DNA of 15,372 bases. It comes from PVC group bacterium. GTDB lineage: Bacteria; GCA-001730085; JADFSZ01. The notes below the pieces were generated by a model. That model saw only the letters and a list, made by a program, of their open reading frames with translations, did not search any database and had not been told where the DNA came from. The stretch is from the NCBI GenBank assembly GCA_022560555.1, contig JADFSZ010000018.1, positions 1 through 15,372 on the forward strand. Reading direction: 5' to 3'. The position numbers were made by a program, and so were the translations under genes. Shown here piece after piece: positions 1 through 15,262 of this stretch (position 1 is its first letter; each line of letters starts with the position of its first letter).

Positions 1-37
1 AGCATACTGCATTTCCATCAATGAGATAAAATTTTGG

Positions 38-63
38 CAAGAAAAATCCCCGACGGGCATTTC
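38..63 (-). terminator. Weak candidate intrinsic terminator downstream of the secretin gene
   Basis: The minus strand reads AAAUGCCC-GUC-GGGGAUUU followed by UUCUU. This is an imperfect 8-bp stem with one G-G mismatch and a 3-nt loop, starting about 55 nt after the stop at 117..119. The stem is short and imperfect. Confidence 0.3.
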
Positions 64-116
64 ATATGTAAGGTTTAAAAACTACGAAGTTTATCGGCCC
101 ATGCGTCATTATGGTT

Positions 117-1289
117 TCAAAACGCGCGATCATTATCTTTAATTTTTGCGGTAATAAAGAAAAGTAAATTTTTCCTTTGTTCTGATTTTGTTGTTGTTTT
201 AAATAAATTTCCTATGAGAGGAATATCACCAAAAAATGGAACTTTCCGCACATCCTCCCTTTCTTCACGTGTCATGAGACCTCCGATGATAACAGTGCCT
301 CCATCCGGTATCAGCACCGTCGTATCCACGCTGCGGGTGACAAAATTCGGAAAGAAGATGTTCGCTATCTCCCCCTCACTTCCAATGGGAATGGTTCCCG
401 GTACCAACTCTAAGTCAATGACAACGGGATGAAATTCCAGAATGATACTTTTGCGATCCGTACTAATGGTAGGCGTGATATCCAAAACAATGCCTGAGTC
501 TGCTTCACTGACAACGGGATCCGGAACAGAAACGAGAGTATCCCCCACTGTCTGGGTGCTTGTGTCTATATCGCTAACGTAGGACTGCGTGCGTATAATC
601 TGGATGTTGGCACGCTGGTTATTAAAACATGAAATGCGCGGAGATGCCAAAGTGGTCAGGTCCACTTTTTGGGCTAAGGCGTGAACGAGAACATCAATAT
701 TCAGATTGGAGGTATTAATGAATCCTAAAATACTGAATTCTTCGGTTGGGTCCAGGGGAAAATCTTCCGTCCAGACTCCAGCCCCAAAGTTTGTTACGTC
801 AGATCCCCCGCCCGTATTGCCATTTACGCCAAAAGTCCCATGATGATTCCCCACGTCGACCGTGTATCCTAAATCCCGAATTTCAACTCCCAAATCTGTA
901 CCGTCAAAAGAGGTCACTTCAATAATACGCGCTTCGATCAAGATTTCATCGGCGACATAAGTGCGAAGCTCCTCCAGAATGCTTTCAACACGGTTGATAT
1001 TTTCCGGTGTATTTCTCACAAAGAGTTTTCCTGTCGGACGATGAAAAACAATGTTGGTTCCTTCTTCTTCAAAATTGACCATGTCGGTTATGAGCGTAAT
1101 GAGAGATTCTCCCGGAACAATAAAGGGGCTCGCGACACCTTCAATCCCTCCGGAAACTTGTATGGAGATGACTTCATCGCTTGTTATCGATTCCGGAGCT
1201 AGCGCTTCAGCATACGGTACTCTGACAAAGACTTCAATGATGACGATCAGAAATATCCATCGGCACTTATCTAAAATTTTCTTTCTCAT
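117..1289 (-). CDS. Outer-membrane secretin (PilQ/GspD family), short form (about 390 aa) with its own signal peptide and only one small N-type domain before the secretin core
   Basis: The ORF track gives 117..1400. The preferred start is ATG 1289..1287, preceded by GAGGG (minus strand AATGAGGGATTACATTATG). The N-terminus MRKKILDKCRWIFLIVIIEVFVRVPYAEA has a basic n-region, a hydrophobic core and an AEA cleavage-like site. The secretin core starts at ILIEARIIEVT. It ends with the family signature GGLMTREEREDVRKVPFFGDIPLIGNLFK...RKNLLFFITAKI. Confidence 0.88.
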   Translation of the reverse strand: MRKKILDKCRWIFLIVIIEVFVRVPYAEALAPESITSDEVISIQVSGGIEGVASPFIVPGESLITLITDMVNFEEEGTNIVFHRPTGKLFVRNTPENINRVESILEELRTYVADEILIEARIIEVTSFDGTDLGVEIRDLGYTVDVGNHHGTFGVNGNTGGGSDVTNFGAGVWTEDFPLDPTEEFSILGFINTSNLNIDVLVHALAQKVDLTTLASPRISCFNNQRANIQIIRTQSYVSDIDTSTQTVGDTLVSVPDPVVSEADSGIVLDITPTISTDRKSIILEFHPVVIDLELVPGTIPIGSEGEIANIFFPNFVTRSVDTTVLIPDGGTVIIGGLMTREEREDVRKVPFFGDIPLIGNLFKTTTKSEQRKNLLFFITAKIKDNDRAF

Positions 1290-2982
1290 AATGTAATCCC
1301 TCATTCTTATTCTTATTTTTGGTTTTGTAATTATTCCCCCCCGCCTCCGAAGATCCAGTTGAAATATTGACTCCTTCGAGACCATCGGATGGAAAGTCAT
1401 GAATCTTGCGAATCAAGTCCGATACATCAAAAACCACCATGCGTAAACCACTTTCAAGAATCCGGTTCTGTGTGGTAATCCAGATCATATTTTCTTCAAT
1501 CATGTAACGCAAATCCGTAAATCTTAAAGCGGCATCCAGAAGCTCAATCAACGGCAAATCTTTCACTTTGATCGATATGGCCCCGCCCTCAAGCACATCG
1601 CTTAGTTCCCCGATGTCTTGGGCGATCGCACGGGTGTCAACAACAATGTTCAATCCTGTCAGAGCAGAAAGTGTCTCAATAACGGATAAAATACTGGCAT
1701 TGTTAAATTCCACGGTATATCGTACGGCCAAGGCATCTAAAAGCTTTTGCTTATCAGGAGACACGTATAAAGCTGTTTCGAGAGGACGTCGCCGCGGACC
1801 GAACTGACGCGCCCAATCAGGTGCTCTCTGGGTTGAGGGGATACTACTCTCAATCACATCGGACAAATGTCCCGTTGTTGCAATGTCCGCCATCTTTTCT
1901 AGGAGAACGTTTTCTAACTCAACTTTCTCTATTTCTGCCCGGCGAATCCATTCAGAAACTTTTTCTTTTAAATCCGGCTGGGGGCCCATACTGAGCGTAT
2001 CCTCCCAAATATTGATGGCCATATCGTACTGCCTCACTTGATAAAGCTTTTGACCTTCTTTAAAAAGACGCTTCATGGTTTGTTGGCGCACATCCATGGC
2101 ATACTGTACTTTTGCCTGCTGAATCTCCCGGATAAACTGTCTGGCTTTGTCATTTTCAGGTTCTTGTTTCAGAATATTTTTATAGGAAACGAGAGCCAAG
2201 TCATATTTCTCCTGATGAAACAATTCTTCCGCTTTGTCCATACGTTCTTTGCGGCTCAGTTGCTTTTGGACATCTTTGACAAACTGATTAGCCTTCCGGT
2301 TATTGGGGTCAAGCTTCAAGACACGATTAAAGGCTTTATCGGCCTGCTCATATTGTCTTTGGTCATAATACTTTTCGCCTCGGGCAAGCGCCCTTGCGAT
2401 TCCCCGTGCTTTCTGTTCTTTGGCTTTATGTATCGCCCGTTTTCTTTTCGCATCTTTCTTTTGGGCCGTGCGTGCTTTCTTTCTTTCGGCTCTTTGGCGT
2501 TTAACCTCCGCTTTCAGAAAATCCCGCGCGGCCCACGACGCGGCATCTTCCAATGGCCCTCCCATTGCCGCGGAATCACTGATGCGATCAGTGTAAATAT
2601 TAATTTTCTCCGCTCTCATATTGACTTGCTTCGCTTTCACATCCATGGTGCTTATCCAATCGGAAGATGGACGGGGGCTCTCTTTCGCGGGCCTGTTTAA
2701 GATTTCCTTTTTCACGTTGTCCATATACACCTTAACCTGCTCAAAATTCGGATTGATATCCTGAACCTTTTGAAATTCAATAAGGGCCGCTTCAAGGGCT
2801 CCTTCTCGATACAGCGTGATGGCCTGCGTGTAATGCTGATCAAGATAATCCTGGATCTCCTTTTCAACCAGGTGCATCCCCGTATTGGCTTTGAGATTTT
2901 GCGGACAAACCACAGTCATCCCGATAAAAACCGGTATCAAAAACGCCAAAATCGCCATTTTTTGATTCCCTTTATAGGACAT
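1267..2982 (-). CDS. Exported TPR-repeat / basic coiled-coil protein with a C-terminal secretin-N0 (STN)-like domain; possible pilotin-like or secretin N-terminal subunit
   Basis: The ORF track gives 1267..3024. The preferred start is ATG 2982..2980 (M15), with GGAG 7 nt upstream (TGGAGAAACGTATG). This yields MSYKGNQKMAILAFLIPVFIGMTVVC, a signal peptide or anchor followed by a Cys; the lipobox is not canonical. There are four TPR-like modules:
- LYREGALEAALIEFQKVQDINPN
- YYDQRQYEQADKAFNRVLKLDPNN
- FHQEKYDLALVSYKNILKQEPEN
- LYQVRQYDMAINIWEDTLSMGP
A K/R-rich segment reads KAEVKRQRAERKKARTAQKKDAKRKRAIHKAKEQKAR. The C-terminal segment VEFNNASILSVIETLSALTGLNIVVDTRAIA...ISIKVKDLPLIELLDAALRFTDLRYMIEENMIWITT matches the pattern of secretin/TonB STN (N0) domains. 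Confidence 0.7.
   Translation of the reverse strand: MSYKGNQKMAILAFLIPVFIGMTVVCPQNLKANTGMHLVEKEIQDYLDQHYTQAITLYREGALEAALIEFQKVQDINPNFEQVKVYMDNVKKEILNRPAKESPRPSSDWISTMDVKAKQVNMRAEKINIYTDRISDSAAMGGPLEDAASWAARDFLKAEVKRQRAERKKARTAQKKDAKRKRAIHKAKEQKARGIARALARGEKYYDQRQYEQADKAFNRVLKLDPNNRKANQFVKDVQKQLSRKERMDKAEELFHQEKYDLALVSYKNILKQEPENDKARQFIREIQQAKVQYAMDVRQQTMKRLFKEGQKLYQVRQYDMAINIWEDTLSMGPQPDLKEKVSEWIRRAEIEKVELENVLLEKMADIATTGHLSDVIESSIPSTQRAPDWARQFGPRRRPLETALYVSPDKQKLLDALAVRYTVEFNNASILSVIETLSALTGLNIVVDTRAIAQDIGELSDVLEGGAISIKVKDLPLIELLDAALRFTDLRYMIEENMIWITTQNRILESGLRMVVFDVSDLIRKIHDFPSDGLEGVNISTGSSEAGGNNYKTKNKNKNEGLHYEKENFR
1336..1342 (-). repeat. Homopolymeric G7 tract (C7 on the + strand) inside the two-frame overlap between the TPR/N0 gene and the secretin reading frame
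   Basis: Read directly: + strand ttattCCCCCCCgcctcc. In the TPR frame it encodes GCG GGG GGG AAT (A G G N). In the secretin frame it reads CGG GGG GGA ATA (R G G I). It is the longest G/C homopolymer I found in the window. Confidence 0.95.
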
Positions 2983-3004
2983 ACGTTTCTCCAAAGATCG
3001 GTTA

Positions 3005-3820
3005 TTATAACTCGCTCTCTGCATCTTCTTCTTGGTCCGGAGCCTCTATTGTGAGAGTAATCATGTCCCCTTGATCTAAATTCTTCAATGCGGCTGTTTC
3101 ATCGGTAATTTCAACCACAGTAAAGCCCTTAATCACACTTCCCACGTGTACGGTCTCAGGCCGATTTTCCGATTCAATGTAAATTTCCGCAAACAACTCT
3201 TTCTTCATACTGGGTTTCTTGTATTCTAAGAAAAACGTTTCTCCGTCAATCAATTTTTCAATTTTTAATTTCCCCTCTTTGATCTCAAGCAAACGATATC
3301 CTTCAACTTCTCCCTTAATCTCGCGAAAATGCGTCCCCGAGGGGGTATTCATTTGGAACAAAACAAGGCCGATCTCATTTTTAAGTTCACCCAACCAAAG
3401 AAGGGGTATCGGCTCTCGTATCGTTTTTTTTAACACAAACTCCGGTTTTTCCGGTTCCAAGATGTCCTCGGGCACTTCCACAATTACTACCGGCGGTGGA
3501 GGAAGCAGTACTCCTTCCGGTGCCTTATATTTGACGAAAAGTATGCGGCCAAACTGGTCCTTATTCAAAACAAAGTTCTCTGACTTACTCAAAAGCTGTT
3601 GGAACTCCCCCACAAGACTTTCCGGTACGACAGCATGCCGTTGTATATCAGATTCGATATCTGACAAACGTTCATTAAACGCGCTAATATTTTCAGTCAT
3701 AGACCAATTCACCAGAATCCATCCCACGCAAATAATAAGCACGATCGCACAAAACCACATCATGATGGCATCGTAGTGCCGCAAAACTTTGTCTATAACA
3801 ACATCCCATTGCAATTTCAT
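3005..3820 (-). CDS. Bitopic membrane protein, PilP/GspC-like by position and topology
   Basis: The start ATG is at 3820. An N-terminal TM segment (IMMWFCAIVLIICVGWILVNW) is followed by a Pro-rich linker (LLPPPPVVIVEVPEDILEPEKPEF). Two beta-rich segments then resemble the PilP/GspC HR-domain pattern: LWLGELKNEIGLVLFQ...IKGEVEGYRLLEIKEGKLKIE and TVHVGSVIKGFTVVEITDETAALKNL. It sits between the PilO-like gene and the secretin-associated genes. The functional call is by analogy only. Confidence 0.45.
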   Translation of the reverse strand: MKLQWDVVIDKVLRHYDAIMMWFCAIVLIICVGWILVNWSMTENISAFNERLSDIESDIQRHAVVPESLVGEFQQLLSKSENFVLNKDQFGRILFVKYKAPEGVLLPPPPVVIVEVPEDILEPEKPEFVLKKTIREPIPLLWLGELKNEIGLVLFQMNTPSGTHFREIKGEVEGYRLLEIKEGKLKIEKLIDGETFFLEYKKPSMKKELFAEIYIESENRPETVHVGSVIKGFTVVEITDETAALKNLDQGDMITLTIEAPDQEEDAESEL

Positions 3821-3844
3821 CTGTGGTCATACCTCGGTATCGCC

Positions 3845-4576
3845 TTAGCCTAACAAAAACCGGAAAGCTTTTACAACCAAATCGGCTTTAACGGTTTCTT
3901 CCGTTACCCGGCTGATATGACAGTAATTTATGATAAAAAACAAACGCTGATGCTCGAGAGCGTAAAGCAAGTTAATCAGTTCGCCGTAATCCGTCTCGAA
4001 GTTAAACGTGGCCGTAAATTCCTCATATGTCGGCTCTTGAGTCATTTTGTTTGTTTTCATCTTCCCTTGCGTAATATGAATATTTTTAAGTTCAGGAGTC
4101 CCGGCTTCCTGAAAAACCCGAATAATTGTTTCTGATATTTCTAGACGCCGAACAAGATCCGGCACCTCCGCCGATTTAGGAATGGTTGTGTCAAATTGCT
4201 CGAACCCGATTCTTTGACGCCCAAGCTCTCTTCGCTTCTTAACCACAAGATTTTTGAAATCAAGTCCCGACAAACTCGGATATTTCTCGGAAAATGTAAA
4301 TGGGTACGCCTCGATCAAATGTTTTTTGATAGCTTCGTATTCTTCGTTAAGCTTAGAGTATTCACGTTCAAGATTCGTCACAATTTTACGTACAGTTACT
4401 GAGCCGGCATTTTTATGATACTCATCAAGCTGCTTCATGGATTGCTCATACTGATGTTGCATATCCGCATAGGCCTTTTTCTGGGGAAGATAAAAATAAA
4501 GGAATGTGCCGATTCCAAGAAGAACAATAATAATCGGTATAGCAATCACAACAATATCTTTTGAGCTAAACCTCAT
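3845..4576 (-). CDS. PilO/GspM-like bitopic inner-membrane protein
   Basis: The start ATG 4576..4574 overlaps the upstream stop as ATGA (4576..4573), with GGAG 8 nt upstream. The protein has an N-terminal TM segment (IVVIAIPIIIVLLGIGTFLYFYL), a coiled-coil stretch (YADMQHQYEQSMKQLDEY...LEREYSKLNEEYEAIKKHL) and a C-terminal alpha/beta region (DYGELINLLYALEHQRLFFIINYCHISR) typical of PilO/GspM. Confidence 0.55.
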   Translation of the reverse strand: MRFSSKDIVVIAIPIIIVLLGIGTFLYFYLPQKKAYADMQHQYEQSMKQLDEYHKNAGSVTVRKIVTNLEREYSKLNEEYEAIKKHLIEAYPFTFSEKYPSLSGLDFKNLVVKKRRELGRQRIGFEQFDTTIPKSAEVPDLVRRLEISETIIRVFQEAGTPELKNIHITQGKMKTNKMTQEPTYEEFTATFNFETDYGELINLLYALEHQRLFFIINYCHISRVTEETVKADLVVKAFRFLLG

Positions 4577-6270
4577 GATAAATCTCCAAACTCCACGTAA
4601 ATCGTAAATTCAATAAGCTCCCCCAAACTATCTTGGACGGCAACGACAACTTCAACCTTCGTAAAATAGCTGTCTTGGGCTAAGGTGTTTTTGAAATCCT
4701 CAACATCCGAAAAATCACCCTTTGTTTTCCCGCGAATTTGAAATTGCTTGAAAAACATAGCCCGATCCCCCAGAGAAAAACCTTTTCCCTCCGGCCGGCC
4801 GCGAGATTCAGCCTGGCGGCGCCCCCGAGCCCTTGGTCTTTGGTCCAGTGCCTCTGCTTCTCCCTTCATCCTTTGAACCGGAATAAATTCGTCAAGCCAA
4901 AAATTATTGGGAATATGACGTGTCACTCGGGCAAGCGTATTCAGCCAGTCATGTTTGTGATTCAGCAAAACCCGCACTTCTTCCAGACGGCTCTCTAAAG
5001 GATCCAGTTTTTCTTCGATACCAGTTCTTAATTGATAGCATTCCTCGCATTCCGAAACAATGAGTTCGATCTGATTCGTTTTTGTCTCGAGCTGTGTGGT
5101 TTGAAAAGAAATGCCCAAATAGATGACGGCCAAGGAGAGACAAAATAATCCCGCCGCTGCGTAAAAATGCCCTTGCCGTTTTTTTATTCCTCGCGTCTGA
5201 ATCACTTCTTGCGGCAAAAGATTGGTATTCAGCTCTGCTTTACCGACGGCGCGTAAAGCCAGTCCGCATGCGATCCCAAACGCGGGATCAAGCCCTTCAG
5301 TCTTGTTGATCGTTCCCTTTGGCGACACACTGATGTTTTCAAGAAGATCAATTTTCTGTGTCGGAATTCCGATGTTTTTTTCAATAAAGGCCATAATGCC
5401 TTTCAAATTGGCCCCACCACCGGAAACAACAACTTTTTCAATGACAACTTCTTTGGATTGGGACCGGTAATAGCCGATTGAGCGCTGAATTTCAGCGATG
5501 AGACGCTGCAAAGTGATCGTGATCGAACGGTTCACCTTGCCGGAAGTCCCGCTTTCTTCTTCGGTTAGCCCTTGATCGATTTTCATTTGTTCGGCTTCTT
5601 TGAAGCCGATACGCATCTCATTTTTTATTGTTTCTGTGATTTCATTACCGGCTAAGGGAAGATTTCTGGACCAGAATTTTTTCCCTTCATACACCAACAA
5701 TGTCGTTGTTGCGGCTCCGATGTCAATAAAAACGATCCCTTTCCCGGGCGGCTTGTAGTGCACGTAATTGTAAAAAGCCAGTCCGCCAACGTCGATAGCT
5801 TCCACTTCAACAACGTTTGTCATCGGAGTTAAAAAGCTCTTTAAAATCCGCTTTTCGAGAGCGCTCAGCACAACCTCGGTTTCGATGGCTAAAGTTTGTT
5901 GTTCCAATATCTGGTAATCCCATACAACGCTGTCTATGGGAAAGGGAACCTGTTGCTGGGCCTCATATTCAATGATTTGGCCGATCTTGCTCGACATAAC
6001 CGGAGGAAGTTTTATGAAGCGGGAAAATGTAAACTGGTTTGGCAGGGATACGATGGCGCTGGATTTTTCAATCCCCATTTTTAATAACATGTGCCGGATA
6101 ATTACGGCAATAGGAGAAAAATCTTTTTGAAGATTAATAGCTTCTTCACGCGGAATTTCAGATTGATGGGCGTGGACAATCTCGAGATCCTTGCCAACCT
6201 TCTTAAACTCAACAATCTTTATTGAGCTTGCCCCTATATCAATCCCAATATAAGCTCTTCTTGGAAGCAT
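4573..6270 (-). CDS. pilM: Type IV pilus assembly protein PilM fused to a PilN-like transmembrane/periplasmic region (GspL-like architecture)
   Basis: The start ATG is at 6270..6268. Actin-like ATPase motifs are present: YIGIDIGASSIKIVEF, VFIDIGAATTTLLVYEG and VVVSGGGANLKGIMAFIEKNIGIP. At about aa 345 comes the conserved PilN N-terminal motif (NTNLLPQEV). A TM segment follows (FYAAAGLFCLSLAVIYLGISF), then a coiled coil and a periplasmic alpha/beta region (FWLDEF...FQIRGKTKG...VEVVVAV). That region is interrupted by an Arg-rich insert. Confidence 0.85.
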   Translation of the reverse strand: MLPRRAYIGIDIGASSIKIVEFKKVGKDLEIVHAHQSEIPREEAINLQKDFSPIAVIIRHMLLKMGIEKSSAIVSLPNQFTFSRFIKLPPVMSSKIGQIIEYEAQQQVPFPIDSVVWDYQILEQQTLAIETEVVLSALEKRILKSFLTPMTNVVEVEAIDVGGLAFYNYVHYKPPGKGIVFIDIGAATTTLLVYEGKKFWSRNLPLAGNEITETIKNEMRIGFKEAEQMKIDQGLTEEESGTSGKVNRSITITLQRLIAEIQRSIGYYRSQSKEVVIEKVVVSGGGANLKGIMAFIEKNIGIPTQKIDLLENISVSPKGTINKTEGLDPAFGIACGLALRAVGKAELNTNLLPQEVIQTRGIKKRQGHFYAAAGLFCLSLAVIYLGISFQTTQLETKTNQIELIVSECEECYQLRTGIEEKLDPLESRLEEVRVLLNHKHDWLNTLARVTRHIPNNFWLDEFIPVQRMKGEAEALDQRPRARGRRQAESRGRPEGKGFSLGDRAMFFKQFQIRGKTKGDFSDVEDFKNTLAQDSYFTKVEVVVAVQDSLGELIEFTIYVEFGDLS

Positions 6271-6330
6271 AGCCCCCCGTTATGCTTTCTGTAAGTGTGT
6301 CAAGATAATGCCGTTATTCGTATATAATGT

Positions 6331-6353
6331 CTTATGTAAGTATAAAGCATAAG
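6331..6353. promoter_or_regulatory. Inverted repeat CTTATG-N11-CATAAG bracketing the -10 hexamer; possible operator
   Basis: Read directly: + strand CTTATGtaagtataaagCATAAG. The 6-bp arms enclose the -10 element at 6339..6344. The arms are short, so chance occurrence cannot be excluded. Confidence 0.3.
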
Positions 6354-6367
6354 CTGATCTGTGTCAA
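6339..6367 (-). promoter_or_regulatory. Sigma70-type promoter for the pil-like operon
   Basis: The minus strand reads TTGACA (6367..6362), a 17-nt spacer CAGATCAGCTTATGCTT, then TATACT (6344..6339). That is a perfect -35, optimal spacing and a 5/6 match to the -10. It lies about 70 nt upstream of the pilM start, in the only large intergenic gap (6271..6469). Confidence 0.6.
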
Positions 6368-6469
6368 GCATATTAAGCCGGTATCCCGAAGCGACATGGC
6401 GTAGGCGTGTTTTTGAAAAGCATGCTGATAACAGCAAGATTCGTATCATACTAAACTATAATAGAATTT

Positions 6470-7606
6470 TCAGGCGAGAATGTTTAATATGGCGCGCGCA
6501 GCCTTACGTGCGGCACCATCCGAGACGAGACGTTCTTTGACTTTCATCAGTTTATGAACAATTTCCTTTTCCCTTTCTGGATTTTCAATGATGGCTTCTA
6601 CGTGTTTTTGGATAAAATAAGGCTTAGCCTGTGATTGCAGACATTCGGGAGCCACTTCTTCGCCAGCGACAATATTCACCATTCCTAAAAACGGAACGTC
6701 CACGACAAGGCGGCCTAAACACCATGTGGCCCAAGAAATCTTATACAAAATCACCATGGGCTTCAAAAAGCATGCGGCTTCCAAGGTCACGGTTCCGGCC
6801 GCAACAAGAACAAGCCGAGAAAGGGCAATAGACGTGTAAGCTCCTGATTCAACAATTGTTAGAGGAATTTTAGTATGAGCCGTTAGATCTCGGATAATCT
6901 GAGGACACGCTCCATCCGCAAGTCCCAAAATAAAATGCAGACTTTTATTTTTTTTGTACAAATTCTCGGCTGTTGTGAGCATAATCGGCAGGTGAGTTTG
7001 GATCTCGTTGGGACGGCTTCCGGGCAAAAGACCAATGACGGTTTTTTCCCTGAGCTCATGATAGGGCTGGATAAGTGCAAGGACATCTTTTTCACCGGGC
7101 AGAGCTTCCAAAATCGGATGTCCGACATAAAGAACGTTGACCCCTGCTTCTTTATACATTGTTTCTTCGAATTTAAACAAAACCAACATGAGGTCAACCA
7201 AGGCTTTTATTTTCCATATACGCCCCTTTCCCCAAGCCCAAATTTGCGGACTGACAAAATACACAATTTTCACGCCTAATTTTTTAGCTAGAGCAGCGAG
7301 TTTAAGATTAAAACCGGGAAAATCGATAAATACAATCACATCCGGCTTTTCTTTTTTAATCCAGTCAAGCGTTTGAAAAAGAATCCGACGAAATATCGAA
7401 TAACTTTTTACGACTTCAATCAAGCCAACAACGGCATGCTTGAGCATATCTTCCAGAAGAGGCACACCTTCATTGGCGAGCTTTGGACCGCCCAGCGCAT
7501 AAAGCTCTACATCCGGATTGATCTTTTTGATCGCACCGGCTAGAATGCCTCCATGCAAATCACCGGAAGCTTCTCCGGCAACGATTAATATTTTTTGACT
7601 TGGCAA
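6470..7606 (-). CDS. lpxB: Lipid-A-disaccharide synthase
   Basis: The translation carries the LpxB N-terminal signature KILIVAGEASGDLHGG, and similarity continues along the whole length (PGFNLKLA..., LLPGSR..EI). The ORF track starts at GTG 7687, which would overlap the upstream gene by 103 nt. The only other start codon in that stretch is TTG 7606..7604, with GGAG 6 nt upstream (AGAGGAGATTATTTG). That start gives about 378 aa and a 22-nt overlap. Confidence 0.9.
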   Translation of the reverse strand: MPSQKILIVAGEASGDLHGGILAGAIKKINPDVELYALGGPKLANEGVPLLEDMLKHAVVGLIEVVKSYSIFRRILFQTLDWIKKEKPDVIVFIDFPGFNLKLAALAKKLGVKIVYFVSPQIWAWGKGRIWKIKALVDLMLVLFKFEETMYKEAGVNVLYVGHPILEALPGEKDVLALIQPYHELREKTVIGLLPGSRPNEIQTHLPIMLTTAENLYKKNKSLHFILGLADGACPQIIRDLTAHTKIPLTIVESGAYTSIALSRLVLVAAGTVTLEAACFLKPMVILYKISWATWCLGRLVVDVPFLGMVNIVAGEEVAPECLQSQAKPYFIQKHVEAIIENPEREKEIVHKLMKVKERLVSDGAARKAARAILNILA

Positions 7607-8607
7607 ATAATCTCCTCTGCAATAGCCAAGGCTTCCCGCCCGGCCAACCCTGAAACAAGGGGTTCCAACCCATCCTGAATGGAACACACGAAGGAATTTA
7701 ATTCATCCTGCAAGGGTTCATTTTTCCGAATGTTTAATTTCTTACGATGAATAAGGTCTAAAATCGTGCGGGGGTTTGTTTTTTGAGGATATTTCTTGGA
7801 ATATGTCACAGCTTCCTGCTTCATATAGTCAATGGAAACATATTTCTCTTCGTCAAAAACACGAATTTTTCTCATCGACTGCAATGTCAATCGGCTTGCA
7901 GTGAGATTGACAATGCATTTATTTTCAAAAATTAATTTCGCGTTTGCGATATCATTTTTCTGAGACAAGACGGGTGTTCCGTACGCAGAAATTTCTTTGA
8001 TTTTCGATTTAACTAAACACAGCACGATATCAATATCATGAATCATCAAATCTAACACAACATCAATATCCGTGCTTCGAAAACTGTAGCTTCCCAGTCT
8101 ATGGACCTCAATAAAACGGGGGTTTTTTAGAATCTTTTCCACTGCCGTCACAGCCGCGTTAAATCTCTCCACATGTCCCACTTGTAAAATTACCTGATGC
8201 TTCTTGGCTAAATCCAGAAGCTGATCGGCTTCACTAACATTTGTCGTGATGGGTTTCTCAATGAGAACATGACATTGGGCTTCAATGGCCGATGATCCAA
8301 CGGATAAATGACTGCCTGTCGGTGTCACCACACTGACGGCATCAACATCAGCCAATAAATCATCGAGGTGTTCATAGGGTCGAGTTTTACATATTCTTGC
8401 GATTTTTTTCGCGCGCCTCAAATCAATATCCATGACCCCAAGCAACTCAATATTTTTCATACGGCTGTAGATGCGCGCGTGCCGCTCACCTAAAAATCCG
8501 ACACCGACGACGCCGATACGTATCGGTGAATGAATTTGTTTGTTTGATACGATTGTCACTTTATGATGATCTTTTATGCGCGATCTTTGAGACCTGAGGC
8601 AATACAA
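7585..8607 (-). CDS. Gfo/Idh/MocA-family NAD(P)-dependent oxidoreductase; GnnA-like by position between lpxA and lpxB
   Basis: It has a Rossmann motif (IRIGVVGVGFLGERHA), an EKP motif (VLIEKPI) and GHVERFN. The start is uncertain. TTG 8607 from the ORF track overlaps the upstream gene by 34 nt. GTG 8559 is in frame and gives a more typical short N-terminus but has no clear SD sequence. Confidence 0.8.
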   Translation of the reverse strand: MYCLRSQRSRIKDHHKVTIVSNKQIHSPIRIGVVGVGFLGERHARIYSRMKNIELLGVMDIDLRRAKKIARICKTRPYEHLDDLLADVDAVSVVTPTGSHLSVGSSAIEAQCHVLIEKPITTNVSEADQLLDLAKKHQVILQVGHVERFNAAVTAVEKILKNPRFIEVHRLGSYSFRSTDIDVVLDLMIHDIDIVLCLVKSKIKEISAYGTPVLSQKNDIANAKLIFENKCIVNLTASRLTLQSMRKIRVFDEEKYVSIDYMKQEAVTYSKKYPQKTNPRTILDLIHRKKLNIRKNEPLQDELNSFVCSIQDGLEPLVSGLAGREALAIAEEIICQVKKY

Positions 8608-9371
8608 AGTCCCCGTTCGGATTTCTCCAGAAAATCCAGAAGAAGATTCCGATGTTCGTTGGGCGGTTCTTTGGATAACTTCTCGATCGCTTGTGATTTA
8701 TTCAGTTCTGACTTAAAAAGAATCTTAAAATCTTTCTTAATGTCTTCAATCCGCTCCGGGGAAAAATCCCCTCGACGAAGAGCAACAAGATTGACCGCGG
8801 AAACAGCACAGGGGCGCCCCCCGGCCAACATAAAGGGAGGAATATCTTTATTCACGGCTGAATGACCCGAAAGTATCACAAAAGCACCGATGCGAACAAA
8901 CTGATGCACAGCCACCATTCCGGAAATAAAGGCATGCTCTCCCACATCAACATATCCGGCCAATAAAACACCATTCGCCAAAATAACATGATTTCCTATT
9001 TGACAATTATGTGCGACATGAGAAGCACCCATCAAAAAACAATTGTTGCCAATGTGTGTCGATGAGCCTTCCTTGGTTCCTTTATGAATCGTAACATATT
9101 CACGAATTTCATTGCTGTCCCCGATATGAACGTAACTATGAATGTCTGAATGAAAGGCTAAATCTTGCGGTTCATGGCCGATGACAGCCCCCATATGAAT
9201 CCGATTGTTTTTCCCGATTCTCGTTCCGCGGGCAATAAAACTGCCCGCCATCACAACGGTACCTGCGTCAATATCCACATCGTCTTCAATCACAACATGG
9301 GGCCCCACCTGGACATCATGATGGATGCGTGCGCCGGTGTCAACGATGGCAGTCGGATGAATCTTAGTCAT
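8574..9371 (-). CDS. Second LpxA-family acyl-ACP:UDP-sugar acyltransferase paralog (left-handed beta-helix plus LpxA-type C-terminal helical domain)
   Basis: The start ATG 9371 has AGGAG 9 nt upstream and overlaps the lpxI stop by 8 nt. Hexapeptide repeats run throughout. LpxA-type motifs are present: IREYVTIHKGT, the catalytic-His region LMGASHVAHNCQIGN, VAVHQFVRIG, and a C-terminal KILFKS...SERGLC. The UDP-GlcNAc-contacting motif is QDLAF rather than the QDLKY seen in the neighbouring paralog and in E. coli LpxA. Confidence 0.8.
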   Translation of the reverse strand: MTKIHPTAIVDTGARIHHDVQVGPHVVIEDDVDIDAGTVVMAGSFIARGTRIGKNNRIHMGAVIGHEPQDLAFHSDIHSYVHIGDSNEIREYVTIHKGTKEGSSTHIGNNCFLMGASHVAHNCQIGNHVILANGVLLAGYVDVGEHAFISGMVAVHQFVRIGAFVILSGHSAVNKDIPPFMLAGGRPCAVSAVNLVALRRGDFSPERIEDIKKDFKILFKSELNKSQAIEKLSKEPPNEHRNLLLDFLEKSERGLCIASGLKDRA

Positions 9372-10185
9372 GTGAAGCGACTCCTAGGACGCAAACATTC
9401 CTTTGATCGGCTTTATTCACAAACTTTTTTTTATTCATGATGAGGGTTTTGCCCGCTTCAACCGCTAGAACACAAGCCTTAACTTGACTCATCACCTCAA
9501 GGGTTTCAACTCCTACGACAGGAACATCAAAACGCATATCCTGATGAGGCTTGCTCACCTTTACAACAACCACTCCGTCTCCGCCCAAAAGGGCTCCCCT
9601 CTTAATCGCCGCGTCTGTTCCCTCAATAGCTTCCACAGCCATCACAGCCTTATTCTTAACAATAATGGTTTGTCCGATATCCAACGCGGCTGATTTTTTG
9701 GCCATATCAAAACCAAACAGAATATCCTCCTGTTCCCTGTCCGTCGGGACACGCTTAGTCATAACCCCAACCGGGGCCAGAAACGATTCCATAAAAGTTG
9801 TCGATGCAATGAGTTTAACCCCGGCGTCTTCAAAACGCTCAGCCACCGCCAGAAGCAAGGAATCATCACGTCGATCCAACACATTCGTCCAGATATTTTT
9901 TAACGGCATTTGTTTCATAAGGGCCGGTGCGTTTTTAATCAAATGGGCTTTATGTATTTTCCCTGCCATCACAGCCTCCGTGATATGATGATCATGAAGA
10001 AGCTCAATGAGTCTCTCAACTTCGTGAATCTCCAGCCAATGCACCGTTTTGACAATGTCTTCAATACGCGATTCTGTTTCTCCGATGATCGCAAACGCGA
10101 CAACCGAGATATTCGCTTTTTGGGCCTGCTCGGCTAAAAGAAGGGGAAATTCTCCGTGTCCGGCAATGAGACCCAATGTGCTCAT
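9364..10185 (-). CDS. lpxI: UDP-2,3-diacylglucosamine diphosphatase LpxI (DUF1009 family)
   Basis: LGLIAGHGEFPLLLAEQA at the N-terminus, and LDIGQTIIVKNKAVMAVEAIEGTDAAIKRG plus FDVPVVGVETL, match the Caulobacter LpxI pattern as I recall it. The ORF track start is TTG 10191. I prefer ATG 10185..10183, which forms an ATGA overlap with the lpxA stop and has GGGGGA 8 nt upstream. Confidence 0.88.
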   Translation of the reverse strand: MSTLGLIAGHGEFPLLLAEQAQKANISVVAFAIIGETESRIEDIVKTVHWLEIHEVERLIELLHDHHITEAVMAGKIHKAHLIKNAPALMKQMPLKNIWTNVLDRRDDSLLLAVAERFEDAGVKLIASTTFMESFLAPVGVMTKRVPTDREQEDILFGFDMAKKSAALDIGQTIIVKNKAVMAVEAIEGTDAAIKRGALLGGDGVVVVKVSKPHQDMRFDVPVVGVETLEVMSQVKACVLAVEAGKTLIMNKKKFVNKADQRNVCVLGVASHD

Positions 10186-10955
10186 CGACAAATCCCCCGG
10201 CTGGATTTTTCGATAAAGCGGACCACATCCATCACTTCTACGGTATCCTGATACTGATCCTTAAGCTTCGAGAGGGCTTGAGAAAGGGGAAGTTGTGATC
10301 GGAATAATATTTTAAACGCTTTTTTCAAGAGTGCTTGGAGTTCAAGAGAAAAATTCTTTCTATTGAGACCTATAGAATTGAGGCCGTATAATTTCGCGGG
10401 ATGTCCGTCGGCTCTTGCGTAAGGAATAACATCTTGAACAACTTTCGAACATCCTCCGACAATCGCTTGTTTTCCGATACGCACAAATTGATGAAGGGCG
10501 GACAATCCTCCGACAACCGCGCCGTTTTCGATCTCAACATGGCCGGCCAGCGTGGCTCCGTTCGCCAGGATGGAGTGGTTATAGATAACACTGTTATGCC
10601 CGACATGAACATAGGCCATAAGTAGATTATCATTGCCGATAATTGTTTCAGAGTTTTCCTCCGTCCCGAGATTAATGGTGACATATTCCCGAATACGGTT
10701 TCTGTCCCCGATCTTGACAAAAGAAGTTTTTCCGGCATATTTGAGATCCTGCGTAATACTTCCGATAATCACCCCGGTAAACAACACACACTCGCGTCCG
10801 AGGGAGGCCCCGCTTTCAATCACACAGCTTGATCCGATACACGTATGGTCCCCAATAACCGCGTTCGCCTTTACAATAGAATACGGACCTATCGAGACGT
10901 CCTCACCAAGAATGGCACGCGGATCAACAATCGCCGTTTTGTGAATCTGAGCCAT
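10182..10955 (-). CDS. lpxA: Acyl-ACP:UDP-N-acetylglucosamine O-acyltransferase
   Basis: It is collinear with E. coli LpxA over its full length: HKTAIVDPRA, ITQDLKYAGK, VKIGDRNRIREYVTI, NLLMAYVHVGHN, ILANGATLAGHV, LHQFVRIG, VVQDVIPY, FKILFRS and SSRGICR. Confidence 0.93.
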   Translation of the reverse strand: MAQIHKTAIVDPRAILGEDVSIGPYSIVKANAVIGDHTCIGSSCVIESGASLGRECVLFTGVIIGSITQDLKYAGKTSFVKIGDRNRIREYVTINLGTEENSETIIGNDNLLMAYVHVGHNSVIYNHSILANGATLAGHVEIENGAVVGGLSALHQFVRIGKQAIVGGCSKVVQDVIPYARADGHPAKLYGLNSIGLNRKNFSLELQALLKKAFKILFRSQLPLSQALSKLKDQYQDTVEVMDVVRFIEKSSRGICR

Positions 10956-10980
10956 ATCGTTCCTTTATATTTATCCTTAC

Positions 10981-11020
10981 TCAAAAGAAAGAGGATATCC
11001 TTATTGATTTGGATATCCGC
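10981..11020 (-). terminator. Hairpin formed by two copies of the palindromic octamer GGATATCC, followed by a U-rich tract; candidate attenuator or partial terminator between lpxC-fabZ and lpxA
   Basis: GGATATCC occurs at 10993..11000 and 11011..11018. The minus strand reads GCGGATATCC-AAATCAATAA-GGATATCC-TCTTTCTTTTGA, an 8-bp stem with a 10-nt loop and a T-rich tail. It sits in a 100-nt gap within an otherwise tightly packed operon. Confidence 0.35.
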
Positions 11021-11055
11021 TTGAAGAATTTGGGGGCCTATAAAACTTCGGGTGA

Positions 11056-12366
11056 TCACGGGCTCACGATGGAAAATGACAGATCGGCCTCGGCAACCAC
11101 GGCTCCGTCCACTGTCGCAATGCCCGAAAATTTACAATATTTACTGCGTTTCTTTTTTAAGCGCACTTCCATCAAAAGTTGATCTCCGGGGAAAACCGGT
11201 TTGCGCCATTTGACTTTTTCCATTCCCATAAAGTACGCAATTTTCCCAATATTCTCTTCGGCTCTGAGCATCAGCACCCCCGCCAGTTGCGCCATGGCTT
11301 CGACGATAAGCACTCCCGGCATCACGGGATGCCCCGGAAAGTGTCCCTGAAAAAACTGATCATTGATGGTGACGTTTTTAATGCCGAGAGCCCGTGTTTG
11401 ACCTTCCATATCCAGAATACGGTCAATGAGTAAAAAGGGATACCGATGCGGCAAAATTTTCTGAATATCATTAATATCCAACTCATGACCGTGCACATCA
11501 GAATCGTGAACAAGGATACCGGATCCAAAATTCCGCGATTCCATCTTTCTTAATTTTTCGACAAGTTTGACATTGCACGCGTGCCCCGATTTAATCGACA
11601 AAATATGCGCTTTGATGGGAGATCCGAGAAGCGTTAAATCCCCTATGAGATCAAGAATTTTGTGCCGGACAAACTCGTCGGGAAATCTCATGTTTTCATT
11701 TAATATTTTATCATCGCCGAGCACAACGGCATTGTCCAATGTCCCTCCTTTGATGAGCCCTTGGCTCCTCAGTTTCTCCACCTCGCTCAAAAAACAAAAT
11801 GTTCTCGCGGGGGCAATCTCATTTTCAAACGATTTTTCATTGATGACAAGAGAATGATATTGAGCTCCTAAAGCCGGATGCTGGTAATCAATGGTAAATG
11901 ATATTCTGAGTTCATTCGCGGGCATGACCACAATGTGCATATCATTAAGCGAACAATGCACGATTTGCCGGACCTGGAAAAAGCGTTTCGCTTTATCCTG
12001 GACCGTACAACCGGCGCTTTTCAACACTTTGACTATGGGTTCGGCCGACCCGTCCATGACAGGAGTTTCATTGGAATTTAATTCGATTTGAATGTTATCA
12101 ATCCCAAGGCCCGTAATCGCGGCTAACATATGCTCTACAGTGTGAATTTTGACATCTTTCTCGCCAATGGTTGTCCCGCGGGAGACATCCCGCACAAGGG
12201 AGACATCCGCCGGAAGCTCGGGCTTCCCCGGAAGATCCACACGAATAAAGCGTATACCGTAATCCATCGGTGCCGGCTTAAAAGTCACGGCCACTTCATT
12301 ACCCGTATGCAGTCCTATACCGGCATAGTTGGCTTCTTCGGCTATTGTTTTTTGGGCTTCTGACAC
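11056..12366 (-). CDS. lpxC/fabZ: Bifunctional UDP-3-O-acyl-N-acetylglucosamine deacetylase (LpxC) / 3-hydroxyacyl-ACP dehydratase (FabZ) fusion
   Basis: The start is GTG 12366, with AAGGA upstream. The N-terminal half matches LpxC (AGIGLHTGNEVAVTFKPAP, TVEHMLAA, ETPVMDGSA, HKILDLIGDL). The C-terminal third matches FabZ (ILPHRYPFLLIDRI, FFQGHFPGHPVMPGVLIVEAMAQ). Confidence 0.93.
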   Translation of the reverse strand: MSEAQKTIAEEANYAGIGLHTGNEVAVTFKPAPMDYGIRFIRVDLPGKPELPADVSLVRDVSRGTTIGEKDVKIHTVEHMLAAITGLGIDNIQIELNSNETPVMDGSAEPIVKVLKSAGCTVQDKAKRFFQVRQIVHCSLNDMHIVVMPANELRISFTIDYQHPALGAQYHSLVINEKSFENEIAPARTFCFLSEVEKLRSQGLIKGGTLDNAVVLGDDKILNENMRFPDEFVRHKILDLIGDLTLLGSPIKAHILSIKSGHACNVKLVEKLRKMESRNFGSGILVHDSDVHGHELDINDIQKILPHRYPFLLIDRILDMEGQTRALGIKNVTINDQFFQGHFPGHPVMPGVLIVEAMAQLAGVLMLRAEENIGKIAYFMGMEKVKWRKPVFPGDQLLMEVRLKKKRSKYCKFSGIATVDGAVVAEADLSFSIVSP

Positions 12367-12389
12367 CAGAGAGGGTCCTTAACGATCGT

Positions 12390-12914
12390 TCAATTATTAA
12401 CTTTTAATTTTTTCAAAACCTTTTCGGTGATATCAAATCTAGGCACGCTAAACAAAACGATTTTGTCATTTTGCTCCAGGATGAGATCGTATTTTTCTTC
12501 CTCACCAACCGCTTGTACCGCTTCAAGAATTCGATCAATGATTTCTTTCTTGATTTTATTTTCCATGGATTTTATGCTTTGATTCACTTCAATAACAAAA
12601 TCCTGAAGAGCTTTAACTTTCGCATCAATAATTTCTTCGCGCTTTTCTTTTTCTTCTTTAGATAAAATGATTTCTTGTTTATCCAGCTCCTCGGTTAAGG
12701 TCGTAATCTCGGTCTTTTTCCGGTCAATAACTTCCTGCTGTTTTTCAACCTCTCCTTTCAAAACTTTCGAGGATTTTTCCACATCTTCAAATTCCGCAAA
12801 AATTTGGCGCAGATTCACCATTCCTATATTAAGGGCCTCTTCGGCCTGAAGGTGTCCCGGAAGACTCCAAATGCACAAAACCATTATACCAATAACCCAA
12901 GTGCTTTTTTTCAT
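12390..12914 (-). CDS. skp: Periplasmic chaperone Skp/OmpH family
   Basis: It has a signal peptide (MKKSTWVIGIMVLCIWSLPGHLQA). The remainder is a roughly 150-aa K/E-rich coiled-coil body with the typical IGMVNLRQIF start. It occupies the canonical position between bamA and the lpx genes. AGAGGG lies 9 nt upstream of ATG 12914. Confidence 0.85.
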   Translation of the reverse strand: MKKSTWVIGIMVLCIWSLPGHLQAEEALNIGMVNLRQIFAEFEDVEKSSKVLKGEVEKQQEVIDRKKTEITTLTEELDKQEIILSKEEKEKREEIIDAKVKALQDFVIEVNQSIKSMENKIKKEIIDRILEAVQAVGEEEKYDLILEQNDKIVLFSVPRFDITEKVLKKLKVNN

Positions 12915-12964: not shown

Positions 12965-15262
12965 TTAAAAAAGTTTCCCGACACCAAAATGCCAACGAGC
13001 CGAATCGGCATTAAGATCACGTTCGTCTTTGTCCAAAACCCACGCATAGTCCAATTTCATCGGACCAAAAGGCGTTTTTACACGCACACCGACACCCGCA
13101 CCGCTCACAAGACTTCCCAGATTCCAGGAAAATTCATCTTCATAAACATTTCCCGTGTCATAAAACACAGCACCCCGAATGACATCTTTATAAACCGGAA
13201 AACTGTATTCGGCGCTCGCAAGCAGTATCGTATTGCCTCCGATGGGATTGTTTGCCGCGTCCCTCGGCCCAACTTGACGAAATCCGAATCCCCGCAAATT
13301 GTTTCCTCCGGCAAAAAACCGCTCAAAAATCGGAACGCGGTCCGAGGCCCCATAGTTTTGAATCGTCCCTAAATCAAGCGAGAGTTCCAAAACCTGTTTT
13401 TCGATGAAAGAATAATATTTCTTAGCCGCAACATTGTACTTCAGATACTCCACATCTCCGCCGAGCGGGCCTCCCATAAATTCCGTTGAAAATGACGTTG
13501 AGTATCCCCGTGTGGGGAACGTGCCGCTATTCGTTGTATTGCGGGATAAGGTGACCGTCAAACTGCTTAAAAGCGTTTCCCCTCCCTCCGCGAGAATCAA
13601 AGGCGATGCATCAAGCGAGAAAGAATCAATTTTAACATTTTCGATTTTGTAACGTGCGGATATGTAGTTGTGTTTTCCTAGCGCCTTTCCCAATCGTACG
13701 GCTCCGCCCGTTCGTCTTTCGTCAAAATCAGCACGAAAGAAATCACGATTGAAAAGATCTACCCCAAATAATACGGGATAATCGAACAGCCAGGGTTCTA
13801 CGAAATTCAACTCATAATCCCGCCGGCGACGTCCGACTTCCGCACGCAAACGCAGGCGTTGACCACCCCCGATAAAACTGGGAAAATTCCCAATATCAAA
13901 ATTTGTTTGTGTCATTTCAACAAAACCGATTAAATTTTCAATGGTGCTGTAACCGGCCCCAAAACTCAAGTTTCCCGTTTTCTTTTCCACAACATCCACA
14001 ATCAAATTTTCATGATTCGGCATACTGCCGGGCTCGATATTGAGCCGAACATCTTCAAAGTATTCCATCTTGAGAAGTCTCTCCTGGCTTTTAGAAAGCT
14101 CGCCTCCGTCAAAAACATCAAGGGGTTTCAGTGTAATATTCCTTCGGATAACAATATCTTTCGTCTTCGCATTGCCTCGGATGACGATGTTCTCTATGTA
14201 TATTTTTTCGTTTTCGCTGATGCGAAATTCTAAATTAATATCCTGAGTTTCTTCATCAATTCTTGTAAACAGATCCACTTTGGCATAAATGTAGCCTCTG
14301 TCGCCATAAAATTCTTCAATATTTCCGATGGATTCTGACACCGTTGTCAGGTTGTAAACATTTCCTCTCTTAACGGTGATGGATTTCCTGAGATCTTCTT
14401 CGGGGAATAAGATATTGCCGTTCACCCGGACTTCACCAATTTGATAGATATACCCTTCTTCCACAACTATCACGATATCCAAAAATTTCTTATCTTCGCT
14501 TTCGGTTTCGTCTACTTTAAGAATTCTCGCGTTAATGTAACCTTGATCCCGGTAATGGCGCATAACAGCATCTAAGTCCGCCTGAAAAATTTCTCGCTTC
14601 ATGTATCCGGATTGAAAAATTCCGCTTTTTTTTGTTTTCATGGCTTTAACAAAAACTTTGTCCGGTATATCGTCATTTCCTTCAAAAACAATGCTTCGGA
14701 TCTTGACTCGGGGGCCCTCTACGATCACATATGTCACCACCGCGGATTGCGTCTCAGGGTCTGCGTCAATTTCAGCCTGGACAATGACCGCAGAATGCCC
14801 CTTTTTTTCATAATAAGCCTTGAGTTGATTCACGTCACTTTGAACGATGCTTTGATTTAAAACGCTTCCTTCTAACAGAGTGATTTCACGCACAAGTTTC
14901 TTTGTTCGAAACCGGTCGTTTCCCGAGATAATAATGGCGGTCACGGTCAGTTTTTCTGTAACGGAGAATATAATATCAACGCCTTCGTCCAATTCATCCA
15001 ATTGAACCGTGATATCAGAAAAGTACCCCAGAGAATACAGGCGACGAAGATCCTCGTTTAAAACCGCACTTTCAAAGGGATCTCCCTTTTTAAGACGAAT
15101 TTGGGGCAAAACGAGATCCGGACTGATGTTTTGACTTCCCCGGACAATGATGTCATGAACAGGAATGCCATCACGGACGGCCCATGCCGGATGACTCCAT
15201 CCAAAAAAGAGGCTTGTAAACAAGGAGAGAGATAAAACAATTTTTAAAAGCTTTGACGTCAT
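12965..15262 (-). CDS. bamA: Outer-membrane protein assembly factor BamA (POTRA domains plus 16-strand-type beta-barrel)
   Basis: The protein is 765 aa with a signal peptide ending AWA. Repeated POTRA-like units are visible (I..I.V.GN......I......G......L..D...L...GYF). The C-terminal barrel carries FFAGG, RGF and a terminal aromatic residue (HFGVGKLF). It is in synteny with skp and the lpx genes. Confidence 0.93.
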   Translation of the reverse strand: MTSKLLKIVLSLSLFTSLFFGWSHPAWAVRDGIPVHDIIVRGSQNISPDLVLPQIRLKKGDPFESAVLNEDLRRLYSLGYFSDITVQLDELDEGVDIIFSVTEKLTVTAIIISGNDRFRTKKLVREITLLEGSVLNQSIVQSDVNQLKAYYEKKGHSAVIVQAEIDADPETQSAVVTYVIVEGPRVKIRSIVFEGNDDIPDKVFVKAMKTKKSGIFQSGYMKREIFQADLDAVMRHYRDQGYINARILKVDETESEDKKFLDIVIVVEEGYIYQIGEVRVNGNILFPEEDLRKSITVKRGNVYNLTTVSESIGNIEEFYGDRGYIYAKVDLFTRIDEETQDINLEFRISENEKIYIENIVIRGNAKTKDIVIRRNITLKPLDVFDGGELSKSQERLLKMEYFEDVRLNIEPGSMPNHENLIVDVVEKKTGNLSFGAGYSTIENLIGFVEMTQTNFDIGNFPSFIGGGQRLRLRAEVGRRRRDYELNFVEPWLFDYPVLFGVDLFNRDFFRADFDERRTGGAVRLGKALGKHNYISARYKIENVKIDSFSLDASPLILAEGGETLLSSLTVTLSRNTTNSGTFPTRGYSTSFSTEFMGGPLGGDVEYLKYNVAAKKYYSFIEKQVLELSLDLGTIQNYGASDRVPIFERFFAGGNNLRGFGFRQVGPRDAANNPIGGNTILLASAEYSFPVYKDVIRGAVFYDTGNVYEDEFSWNLGSLVSGAGVGVRVKTPFGPMKLDYAWVLDKDERDLNADSARWHFGVGKLF

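Follow-up and report, generated by a model that had tools for sequence, protein, structure and literature searches.

The secretin of a type IV pilus-like gene cassette in an uncultured PVC group bacterium is divided between two adjacent genes, and the break lies inside a single domain. The genes were found in a 15,372-nt stretch of DNA (contig JADFSZ010000018.1, positions 1 to 15,372), which was analyzed as a whole and is called the window below. The first gene encodes an exported protein of 571 amino acids (aa) with tetratricopeptide repeats (TPR) and a secretin-type N0 domain, and the second encodes a short secretin of 390 aa. Strand β1 of an N1-type domain is carried by the TPR-N0 protein and the remainder, α1-β2-β3-α2, by the secretin. 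A secretin is commonly regarded as one chain whose N0 domain links the pore in the outer membrane to the platform in the inner membrane. Here, two genes were present in each of nine independent loci, and the split is real, conserved, and restricted to a small uncultured lineage of the PVC group. The two genes are probably the fission products of a PVC-type TPR-PilQ that carried a signal peptide, TPR, N0, the N1-type domain, and the secretin core.

Two exported proteins and their domains

All sizeable gene-like open reading frames (ORFs) in the ORF list of the window, and all features described below, are on the minus strand. The gene of the TPR-N0 protein occupies 2982..1267 (ORF open from 3024); its probable start is the ATG at 2982, with GGAG 7 nt upstream. 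P0001, which is 96% identical to it, is an annotated protein of a PVC group bacterium. A putative signal peptide of the signal peptidase I type was read from the sequence (MSYKGNQK-MAILAFLIPVFIGMTVV-CPQNLKA, 2887..2982). It is followed by a TPR and coiled-coil region at ORF residues ~55-370 (1915..2862), where TPR_2 (52.1 bits, cut-off 27) and TPR_1 (45.1 bits, cut-off 27.8) of Pfam scored above threshold and other TPR families matched as well. When the whole TPR protein was used as the query, only one homologue was returned; TPR and coiled-coil words swamped the candidates.

An N0/STN domain (PF07660, PF21305) was assigned to ORF residues 435-526 (1447..1722) by AlphaFold2 (AF2), Foldseek, and hhalign. 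In Pfam, type_II_gspD_N0 matched the C-terminus of the protein with E 0.002 in the whole protein and 2e-4 in the isolated C-terminus, and STN with E 0.063 and 0.0025, respectively; in the isolated C-terminus both matches were below the curated cut-offs (21.5 versus 27 bits and 18 versus 28.4 bits). AF2 modelled the 175 C-terminal residues with a β-α-β-β-α-β-β core, a fold common to secretin N0 and the signalling domains of TonB-dependent transducers, at a predicted local distance difference test (pLDDT) score of 81-88. In a Foldseek search of the PDB, the best match of this C-terminus was the N0 domain of Neisseria meningitidis PilQ (4ar0, E 9.8e-6), followed by M. xanthus PilQ, the N0 domain of GspD from enterotoxigenic Escherichia coli (4jtm, TM score 0.72 on the target), and the STN domain of PupA (2a02). 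The modelled fold and its structural matches indicate that the C-terminus is a genuine secretin-type N0/STN domain, in agreement with an earlier note that had recognized an STN/N0-like segment from the sequence alone. The domain is followed by a conserved C-terminal peptide, MVVFDVSDLIRKIHDFPSDGL (1378..1446), which represents β1 and a short helix belonging to the N1-type domain. The remaining low-complexity tail (1267..1377) differs across homologues and includes the 23 nt by which the TPR-N0 and secretin ORFs of the window overlap in different frames.

The TPR-N0 protein had been read as a pilotin-type TPR module fused to N0. It does resemble the pilotins PilF, PilW, Tgl, and TadD in that TPR repeats are encoded next to a secretin gene, with a plausible role in secretin assembly. 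However, these pilotins are lipoproteins without N0 that secretins require for localization or multimerization, whereas the present protein is ~570 aa long, lacks a conserved lipobox, and bears the N0 and β1 of the secretin itself. By inspection, the end of the signal peptide in the window (...GMTVVC-PQNLKA) contains no canonical lipobox, and the TPR homologues of loci L003, L005, and L009 have no cysteine at the lipobox position, that of L005 having no cysteine at all. The family thus appears, by inspection, to use signal peptides of the signal peptidase I type that lack a conserved lipobox cysteine. With the lipobox missing and with TPR-N0-N1-secretins existing on one chain (L093, L141, L161, and Amuc_1098, see below), the pilotin interpretation was abandoned.

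The short secretin gene (1289..117) is preceded by a Shine-Dalgarno (SD) sequence, GAGGG (1302..1298), located 8 nt before the ATG. The product begins with a putative signal peptide (residues 1-29, 1203..1289), which was delimited by the alignment of 14 members and by an AF2 helix at residues 6-21, with probable cleavage between AEA and LAPES. All 14 short secretins (357-410 aa) had a charged n-region, a hydrophobic core, and small residues at -3/-1 in the alignment, and an A/P-P-x-E/D motif was conserved after the signal peptide in 12 of them. The separate gene, its SD, and the signal peptide-like N-terminus are as described in the earlier note, and this N-terminus is conserved in kind across these members. 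The mature N-terminus (residues 30-57, 1119..1202) is conserved and predicted to be flexible (pLDDT 44-58), with the family consensus AP.EI.SS.TI.SQLV...SPYMVTGE over ~28 residues. This segment, conserved yet modelled as disordered, could provide a second site of contact with the TPR-N0 protein or with a different partner.

The mature N-terminus leads into an incomplete N1/N3-type (Secretin_N) domain consisting of α1-β2-β3-α2 (residues 58-112, 954..1118; AF2, Pfam, and hhalign) and then into the secretin core (residues 113-390 and the stop codon, 117..953; Pfam, AF2, and Foldseek). The Pfam Secretin family (PF00263) matched residues 204-383 of 390 with E 1e-36 and 126.5 bits (cut-off 27.5). 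The AF2 model of the short secretin had a mean pLDDT of 77.6, with values >90 in the long β-hairpins of the core. Its best Foldseek match was V. cholerae PilQ (6w6m, E 1.9e-19), and further matches were GspD, BfpB, P. aeruginosa PilQ, InvG, and phage pIV. No N0 domain was found on the 390-aa chain by Pfam or AF2. We infer that this chain builds the channel in the outer membrane, which in the secretin superfamily is a 12-15-mer.

The break within the N1-type domain

The best-conserved stretch of the TPR proteins is VV(Y/F)DVxD(L/I)xxKxxDFP, which follows N0 after a few residues. Its columns D, V, D, D, F, and P are invariant among six members of the TPR family, as is an L column of the C-terminal peptide, and the TPR protein always ends a few residues beyond it. 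Because this motif is followed in one-chain proteins by a long loop and then by α1-β2-β3-α2, it was identified as β1 of an N1-type (Secretin_N-like) domain. The small planctomycete protein P0124, for example, has on one chain N0, 'VYDVRDLLFKIQDFPGP', a Gly/Ser-rich loop, and 'DFITEIVKAN...ITLTNGLLIVTQTKKVHGEVGRLLNLLRQ', and the C-terminal peptide of the TPR-N0 protein in the window aligns with 'vYDVrDL..dFpg', with which the N1 half of one-chain modules begins. In the window secretin, the signal peptide and the 28-residue conserved linker are followed by 'SLITLITDMV..NIVFHRPTGKLFVRNTPENINRVESILEELR', which corresponds to the α1-β2-β3-α2 remainder. VFDVSDLI...DFP and SLITLITDMV...ILEELR, which the earlier note had treated as separate elements, are thus β1 and the remainder of one domain. 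The statement that the pieces are divided between two genes was borne out, but the break does not lie between N0 and a self-contained small domain; it cuts the N1-type domain.

We further compared the split family with a hidden Markov model (HMM) of 78 one-chain N0-N1 modules, none of which came from the split family. HMM positions 24-158 were matched by the window TPR protein (84 bits). Of the 14 short secretins, most matched at ~160-216 (three only at ~190-216), in each case with the same part of the protein. For P0015, P0018, and P0019, which are one-chain secretins, the match was continuous at positions 37-215. In hhalign, the TPR C-terminus family corresponded to module columns 61-181 (99.6% probability, E 9e-25) and the short-secretin N-terminus family to columns 189-243 (93% probability, E 2e-7). 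The Pfam Secretin_N match of the short secretin, at 20.9-24.9 bits and below the cut-off of 28.2, covered profile positions 12/13-63 of 69. In AF2, the secretin N-domain consisted of a helix at 60-70, strands at 79-83 and 88-93, and a helix at 95-110 (pLDDT 86-93), with no confident strand before the helix at 60-70; residues 23-58 had pLDDT <58. The β1 peptide of the TPR protein had pLDDT <50 when modelled without a partner. As the HMM, profile-profile, and AF2 tests agree, the two chains carry one domain between them: the break is inside the N1-type domain, with β1 on the TPR protein and α1-β2-β3-α2 on the secretin.

N0 followed by a 'YDVxDL' N1-type module was found in 26,774 representative proteins at E <= 0.001. 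The profile search, whose alignment included planctomycete-type N0-N1 proteins, returned mostly multi-repeat N0-N1 proteins and few close relatives; it served to build the one-chain module profile and not to count fused against split loci. Many of the proteins P0128-P0276 contain up to 13 tandem N0-N1 modules with a period of ~200 aa; those of ~780 aa have two modules, with a degenerate secretin-like segment after each. Four proteins (P0124, annotated as from a Planctomycetes bacterium, P0125, P0198, and P0225) are stand-alone exported proteins of ~210-250 aa with N0 and a complete N1-type domain and no secretin core. They look like free secretin-type periplasmic modules.

Probable fission, proposed reassembly, and known split secretins

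A metagenome scan with the N0 region revealed one-chain proteins of 885-905 aa (L093:4864-7518, L141:3489-6194, and L161:348-3062), in which Pfam detected TPR, then N0/STN, then Secretin. Both window proteins are collinear with the L093 protein. The TPR region (179-344) aligned to L093 62-200, weakly (E 0.006), N0 with β1 (437-553) to 389-493 (E 9e-11), and secretin residues 76-390 to 539-876 (E 1e-29). A protein of this type has been described in Akkermansia muciniphila, whose PilQ (Amuc_1098) has 907 aa, with TPRs at 71-239 and a secretin domain at 650-876, and was called unique but conserved in Verrucomicrobia and Lentisphaera by its authors (PMC4960237). As in Akkermansia PilQ, the TPR region is N-terminal and the secretin domain C-terminal, and the order TPR, N0, N1-type domain, and core is kept across the two genes; the size is also similar, 907 aa versus ~540 + 360 mature residues here. 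The Amuc_1098-1102 cluster contains a PilM/FtsA-like gene and two small exported proteins (PMC4960237, PMC5332112); the window likewise has a clear PilM-like gene (PilM_2), with a weak or faint Amuc_1100 signal on homologues of its 243-aa protein. In contrast to Akkermansia PilQ, a single polypeptide of ~900 aa that was compared by its published description only, two genes were present in the nine loci.

By secretin score, the closest one-chain relatives were P0015, P0018, and P0019 (124-128 bits), MSHA-type proteins of ~550 aa encoded in a type IV pilus cluster together with an MshE-type ATPase. They share with the split pair the order N0, β1, long Gly/Ser loop, α1-β2-β3-α2, and secretin. Unlike the split pair, they are single chains, and their N-terminal extension is a short coiled region without TPRs. 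Given the PilM-N/PilO/PilP-like cassette, PilQ as the nearest structure, and MSHA-type proteins as the nearest relatives, the system was assigned to type IV pili rather than to type III secretion.

Since N0, N1, and the secretin domain on one chain is the standard in canonical secretins, the split is most simply explained by fission. Several points weigh against this reading of the two genes. The direction, fission rather than fusion, is an argument from parsimony, and the one-chain TPR secretins are only ~26-27% identical and lie in different gene contexts. The match of the window secretin to the one-chain HMM (positions 167-216) scored 7.4 bits and is weak alone; it gains weight only because of its consistency across the family and the profile-profile result. 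The AF2 models were read as secondary structure, which cannot reveal strand pairing. Finally, in a chimera of β1 and the half-domain, the Pfam Secretin_N match was not extended; that Pfam model also misses β1 of the one-chain relative P0018, so this test carries no weight.

If the two genes arose by fission, the break would have fallen in the long variable loop between β1 and α1 of the N1-type domain, and the downstream half would have gained its own ribosome-binding site and Sec signal peptide. Both halves would be exported to the periplasm, where the TPR-N0 chain would re-associate beneath the short-secretin pore. The likeliest route would be that the VV(Y/F)DVxDL..DFP peptide donates the missing β1 to the two-stranded α-β-β-α half-domain of the secretin. 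The N-ring would be rebuilt in this way, with the N0 ring and, beyond it, the TPR arrays under the pore. In the GspC-GspD and PilP-PilQ pairs, N0 is the contact with the inner-membrane platform. Here, N0 may dock, as in other secretins, onto the PilM-N/PilO-like/PilP-like platform encoded just upstream, and the TPR array may be a built-in spacer or assembly module rather than a lipoprotein pilotin. That the ring-building N1 domain is rebuilt in the periplasm by β-strand complementation, with the N0/TPR layer as a detachable subunit, is a tentative proposal to which we give somewhat less than an even chance. If true, strand complementation could let pore insertion and platform coupling be assembled or regulated separately, and the pair would be a natural split-domain system for studying secretin N-ring formation.

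The TPR-N0 protein might instead be an independent accessory factor (docking, scaffold, or chaperone) that carries an STN domain, with the short secretin being minimal and self-sufficient; the two proteins may then cooperate without rebuilding a shared domain. This explanation draws on the wide occurrence of STN/N0 modules outside secretins (the 26,774 representative proteins, and stand-alone N0-N1 proteins of ~230-250 aa) and on TPR proteins that aid secretins in trans elsewhere, such as PilF, TadD, and Y4yS (PMC4311626). The 28 conserved N-terminal residues of the secretin could also complete its own domain, as AF2 placed a low-confidence strand at 41-44. However, the two proteins are complementary, non-overlapping halves of an otherwise one-chain module, and they align collinearly with one-chain TPR-N0-N1-secretin proteins. 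The best-conserved segment of the TPR protein is the β1 motif near its end, and the two genes invariably lie side by side in one order. We therefore consider an accessory factor unlikely, and fission of a TPR-PilQ remains the preferred reading.

Split secretins have been described before, contrary to what the earlier note supposed. In Rhc-family type III systems, the secretin gene is split into rhcC1/nolW and rhcC2, or hrcIIC1 and hrcIIC2 (PMC3574062), and TPR proteins are encoded nearby, of which Y4yS affects RhcC2 levels (PMC3574062, PMC4311626). The present pair resembles RhcC1/RhcC2 in principle, in having the N-terminal and C-terminal parts of a secretin on two genes. It differs in belonging to a type IV pilus cassette; moreover, the Rhc genes are not adjacent, and the Rhc TPR protein is a separate small lipoprotein that is not joined to the N-terminal half of the secretin. 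In some protists, the mitochondrial type II secretion system (T2SS) contains GspD, GspDL, and GspDN1-3, and a single Secretin_N domain is divided between GspDN2 and GspDN3 (PMC8134430). There, too, the secretin is broken into several polypeptides, but that system is eukaryotic and T2SS-derived, has lost N0 and GspC, and has no TPR module.

Our literature searches found no description of this TPR-N0/short-secretin split. New here are a split secretin within a type IV pilus cassette, an N-terminal half bearing both a long TPR array and N0, and a break point that the sequences place inside the N1-type domain and that the family shares. The pair represents a conserved natural version of a secretin in which N0 and TPR repeats are exported as a protein of their own and the adjacent ring-building domain is cut through. 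If the halves re-associate, the covalent link would be dispensable, and the pair would offer a ready system for examining the contributions of N0 and TPR to pore assembly, gating, and platform docking. The products of Akkermansia Amuc_1098-1102 are studied for host effects, and there, too, the TPR-N0 and pore parts of the secretin could be separable units. Practical relevance is limited, as the family is rare: it comprises 13 protein clusters, with at least one species representative in the genome scan, from uncultured PVC-group bacteria only.

Conservation of the split and its genomic setting

The search of the protein collection delimited the short-secretin family, whose 13 clusters (357-410 aa) were 33-48% identical to the query over 86-99% of its length. 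Beyond them, the score fell from 189 to 128 bits, to ordinary secretins of 550-600 aa with STN domains. The two-gene state was observed in all nine independent loci (the window, L008, L001, L002, L003/L004, L005, L006/L007, L009, and L090), across which secretin identity was 34-49%. The loci came from different samples and assemblers, with ENA, JGI, NCBI, and Logan as sources. L008 belongs to PVC group bacterium GCA_022561295.1 and is 96% identical to the window, L009 belongs to PVC group bacterium ex Bugula neritina, L001 was examined together with its 264-kb JGI contig, and L092 is the same contig as L007. Among the matches listed in a genome scan with the short-secretin N-terminus, one was a true relative (L009) and 79 were ordinary PilQ proteins of Proteobacteria and others. 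A metagenome scan with the N0 C-terminus revealed no further split locus.

Across the nine loci, the distance from the TPR stop to the secretin start varied between -23 and +142 nt, each of the three relative frames occurred, the stop codons differed, and an SD-like AGGAG/GGAGG preceded the secretin start in most homologous loci. The five-gene cassette was constant, in the order PilM(N), ~240-aa protein, ~245-aa protein, TPR protein of 600-620 aa, and short secretin, with the last two genes always adjoining, whereas the flanking genes varied. Compared with L008 (6560-6630), small indels lengthen the TPR ORF of the window by ~22 low-complexity residues and create the 23-nt overlap; in L008, the TPR ORF stops owing to an indel, 37 nt short of the conserved secretin ATG. 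The overlap in the window is therefore merely a non-conserved tail.

An assembly artefact or a recent pseudogenizing frameshift in one secretin gene could be suspected from this overlap (134 nt when the ATG at 1400, the first in the secretin-frame ORF, is taken as the start) and from the low-complexity TPR tail with its indel relative to a 96% identical locus. The comparison of related loci for fused or split genes, which the earlier note had called for, excluded an artefact: two genes were found in nine loci from different samples and assemblers, with spacers of up to 142 nt and three frames. The secretin start codon is conserved, an SD is present in most loci and a signal peptide in every secretin, and the arrangement was retained while the secretins diverged to 34% identity. 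We consider this explanation very improbable. A programmed ribosomal frameshift or stop-codon read-through joining both ORFs, which the overlap in different frames might suggest, is still harder to credit: in other loci the relative frame is 0, 1, or 2 and the separation 3 to 142 nt, neither a slippery site nor the overlap is conserved, and an internal signal peptide would be senseless in a fused chain. Artefact, recent pseudogene, and programmed frameshift were set aside on this nine-locus comparison of spacing, frame, and SD. The short secretin that diverges most (P0014, 401 aa) is encoded on another, short contig (L091, 1-1711). Upstream of its gene lies the 3' end of a P0013-like secretin gene instead of a TPR-N0 gene, and this contig is not long enough to reveal more.

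In the window, the TPR-N0 and secretin genes are the fourth and fifth genes of the cassette. The first gene (6270..4573) encodes a 565-aa PilM-PilN fusion, with a Pfam PilM_2 match of E 4e-41 and a weak C-terminal PilN match; a fusion of 545-580 aa was present at the same cassette position in every related locus. This fusion resembles MshI-type systems. The second and third genes, both kept in related loci, encode membrane-anchored proteins of 243 aa at the PilO position (4576..3845) and 271 aa at the PilP position (3820..3005). Homologues of the 243-aa protein carry only weak or faint Amuc_1100 marks in precomputed Pfam, and the protein itself had no match in a PDB profile search; it is possibly a distant Amuc_1100 relative. 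The 271-aa protein had no match in Pfam or in the PDB profile search. PilO-like and PilP-like roles were inferred for the two proteins from gene position alone.

The cassette is located directly 3' of an outer-membrane biogenesis block on the same strand (6470-15262), comprising BamA, Skp, and lipid A genes. The Pfam assignments in this block were BamA (15262..12965), Skp/OmpH (12914..12390), a 436-aa LpxC-FabZ fusion (12366..11056; LpxC E 2e-101 at residues 5-273 and FabA-like E 1e-37 at residues 305-427), LpxA (10955..10182; 257 aa, Hexapep and Acetyltransf_11), LpxI (10191..9364), a second LpxA-like acyltransferase (9371..8574; 265 aa, Hexapep and Acetyltransf_11), a GFO/IDH/MocA oxidoreductase (8607..7585), and LpxB (7687..6470). 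The neighbors of the cassette in related loci are quite different, so the linkage to this block is specific to the lineage of the window; in the 96% identical L008, LpxB is likewise upstream of the cassette. LpxD is not present within the lipid A cluster of the window. In this cluster (7585-10955), two LpxA-type paralogues flank LpxI, and the oxidoreductase sits between the second paralogue and LpxB, where it might indicate a modified (GlcN3N-type) lipid A pathway.

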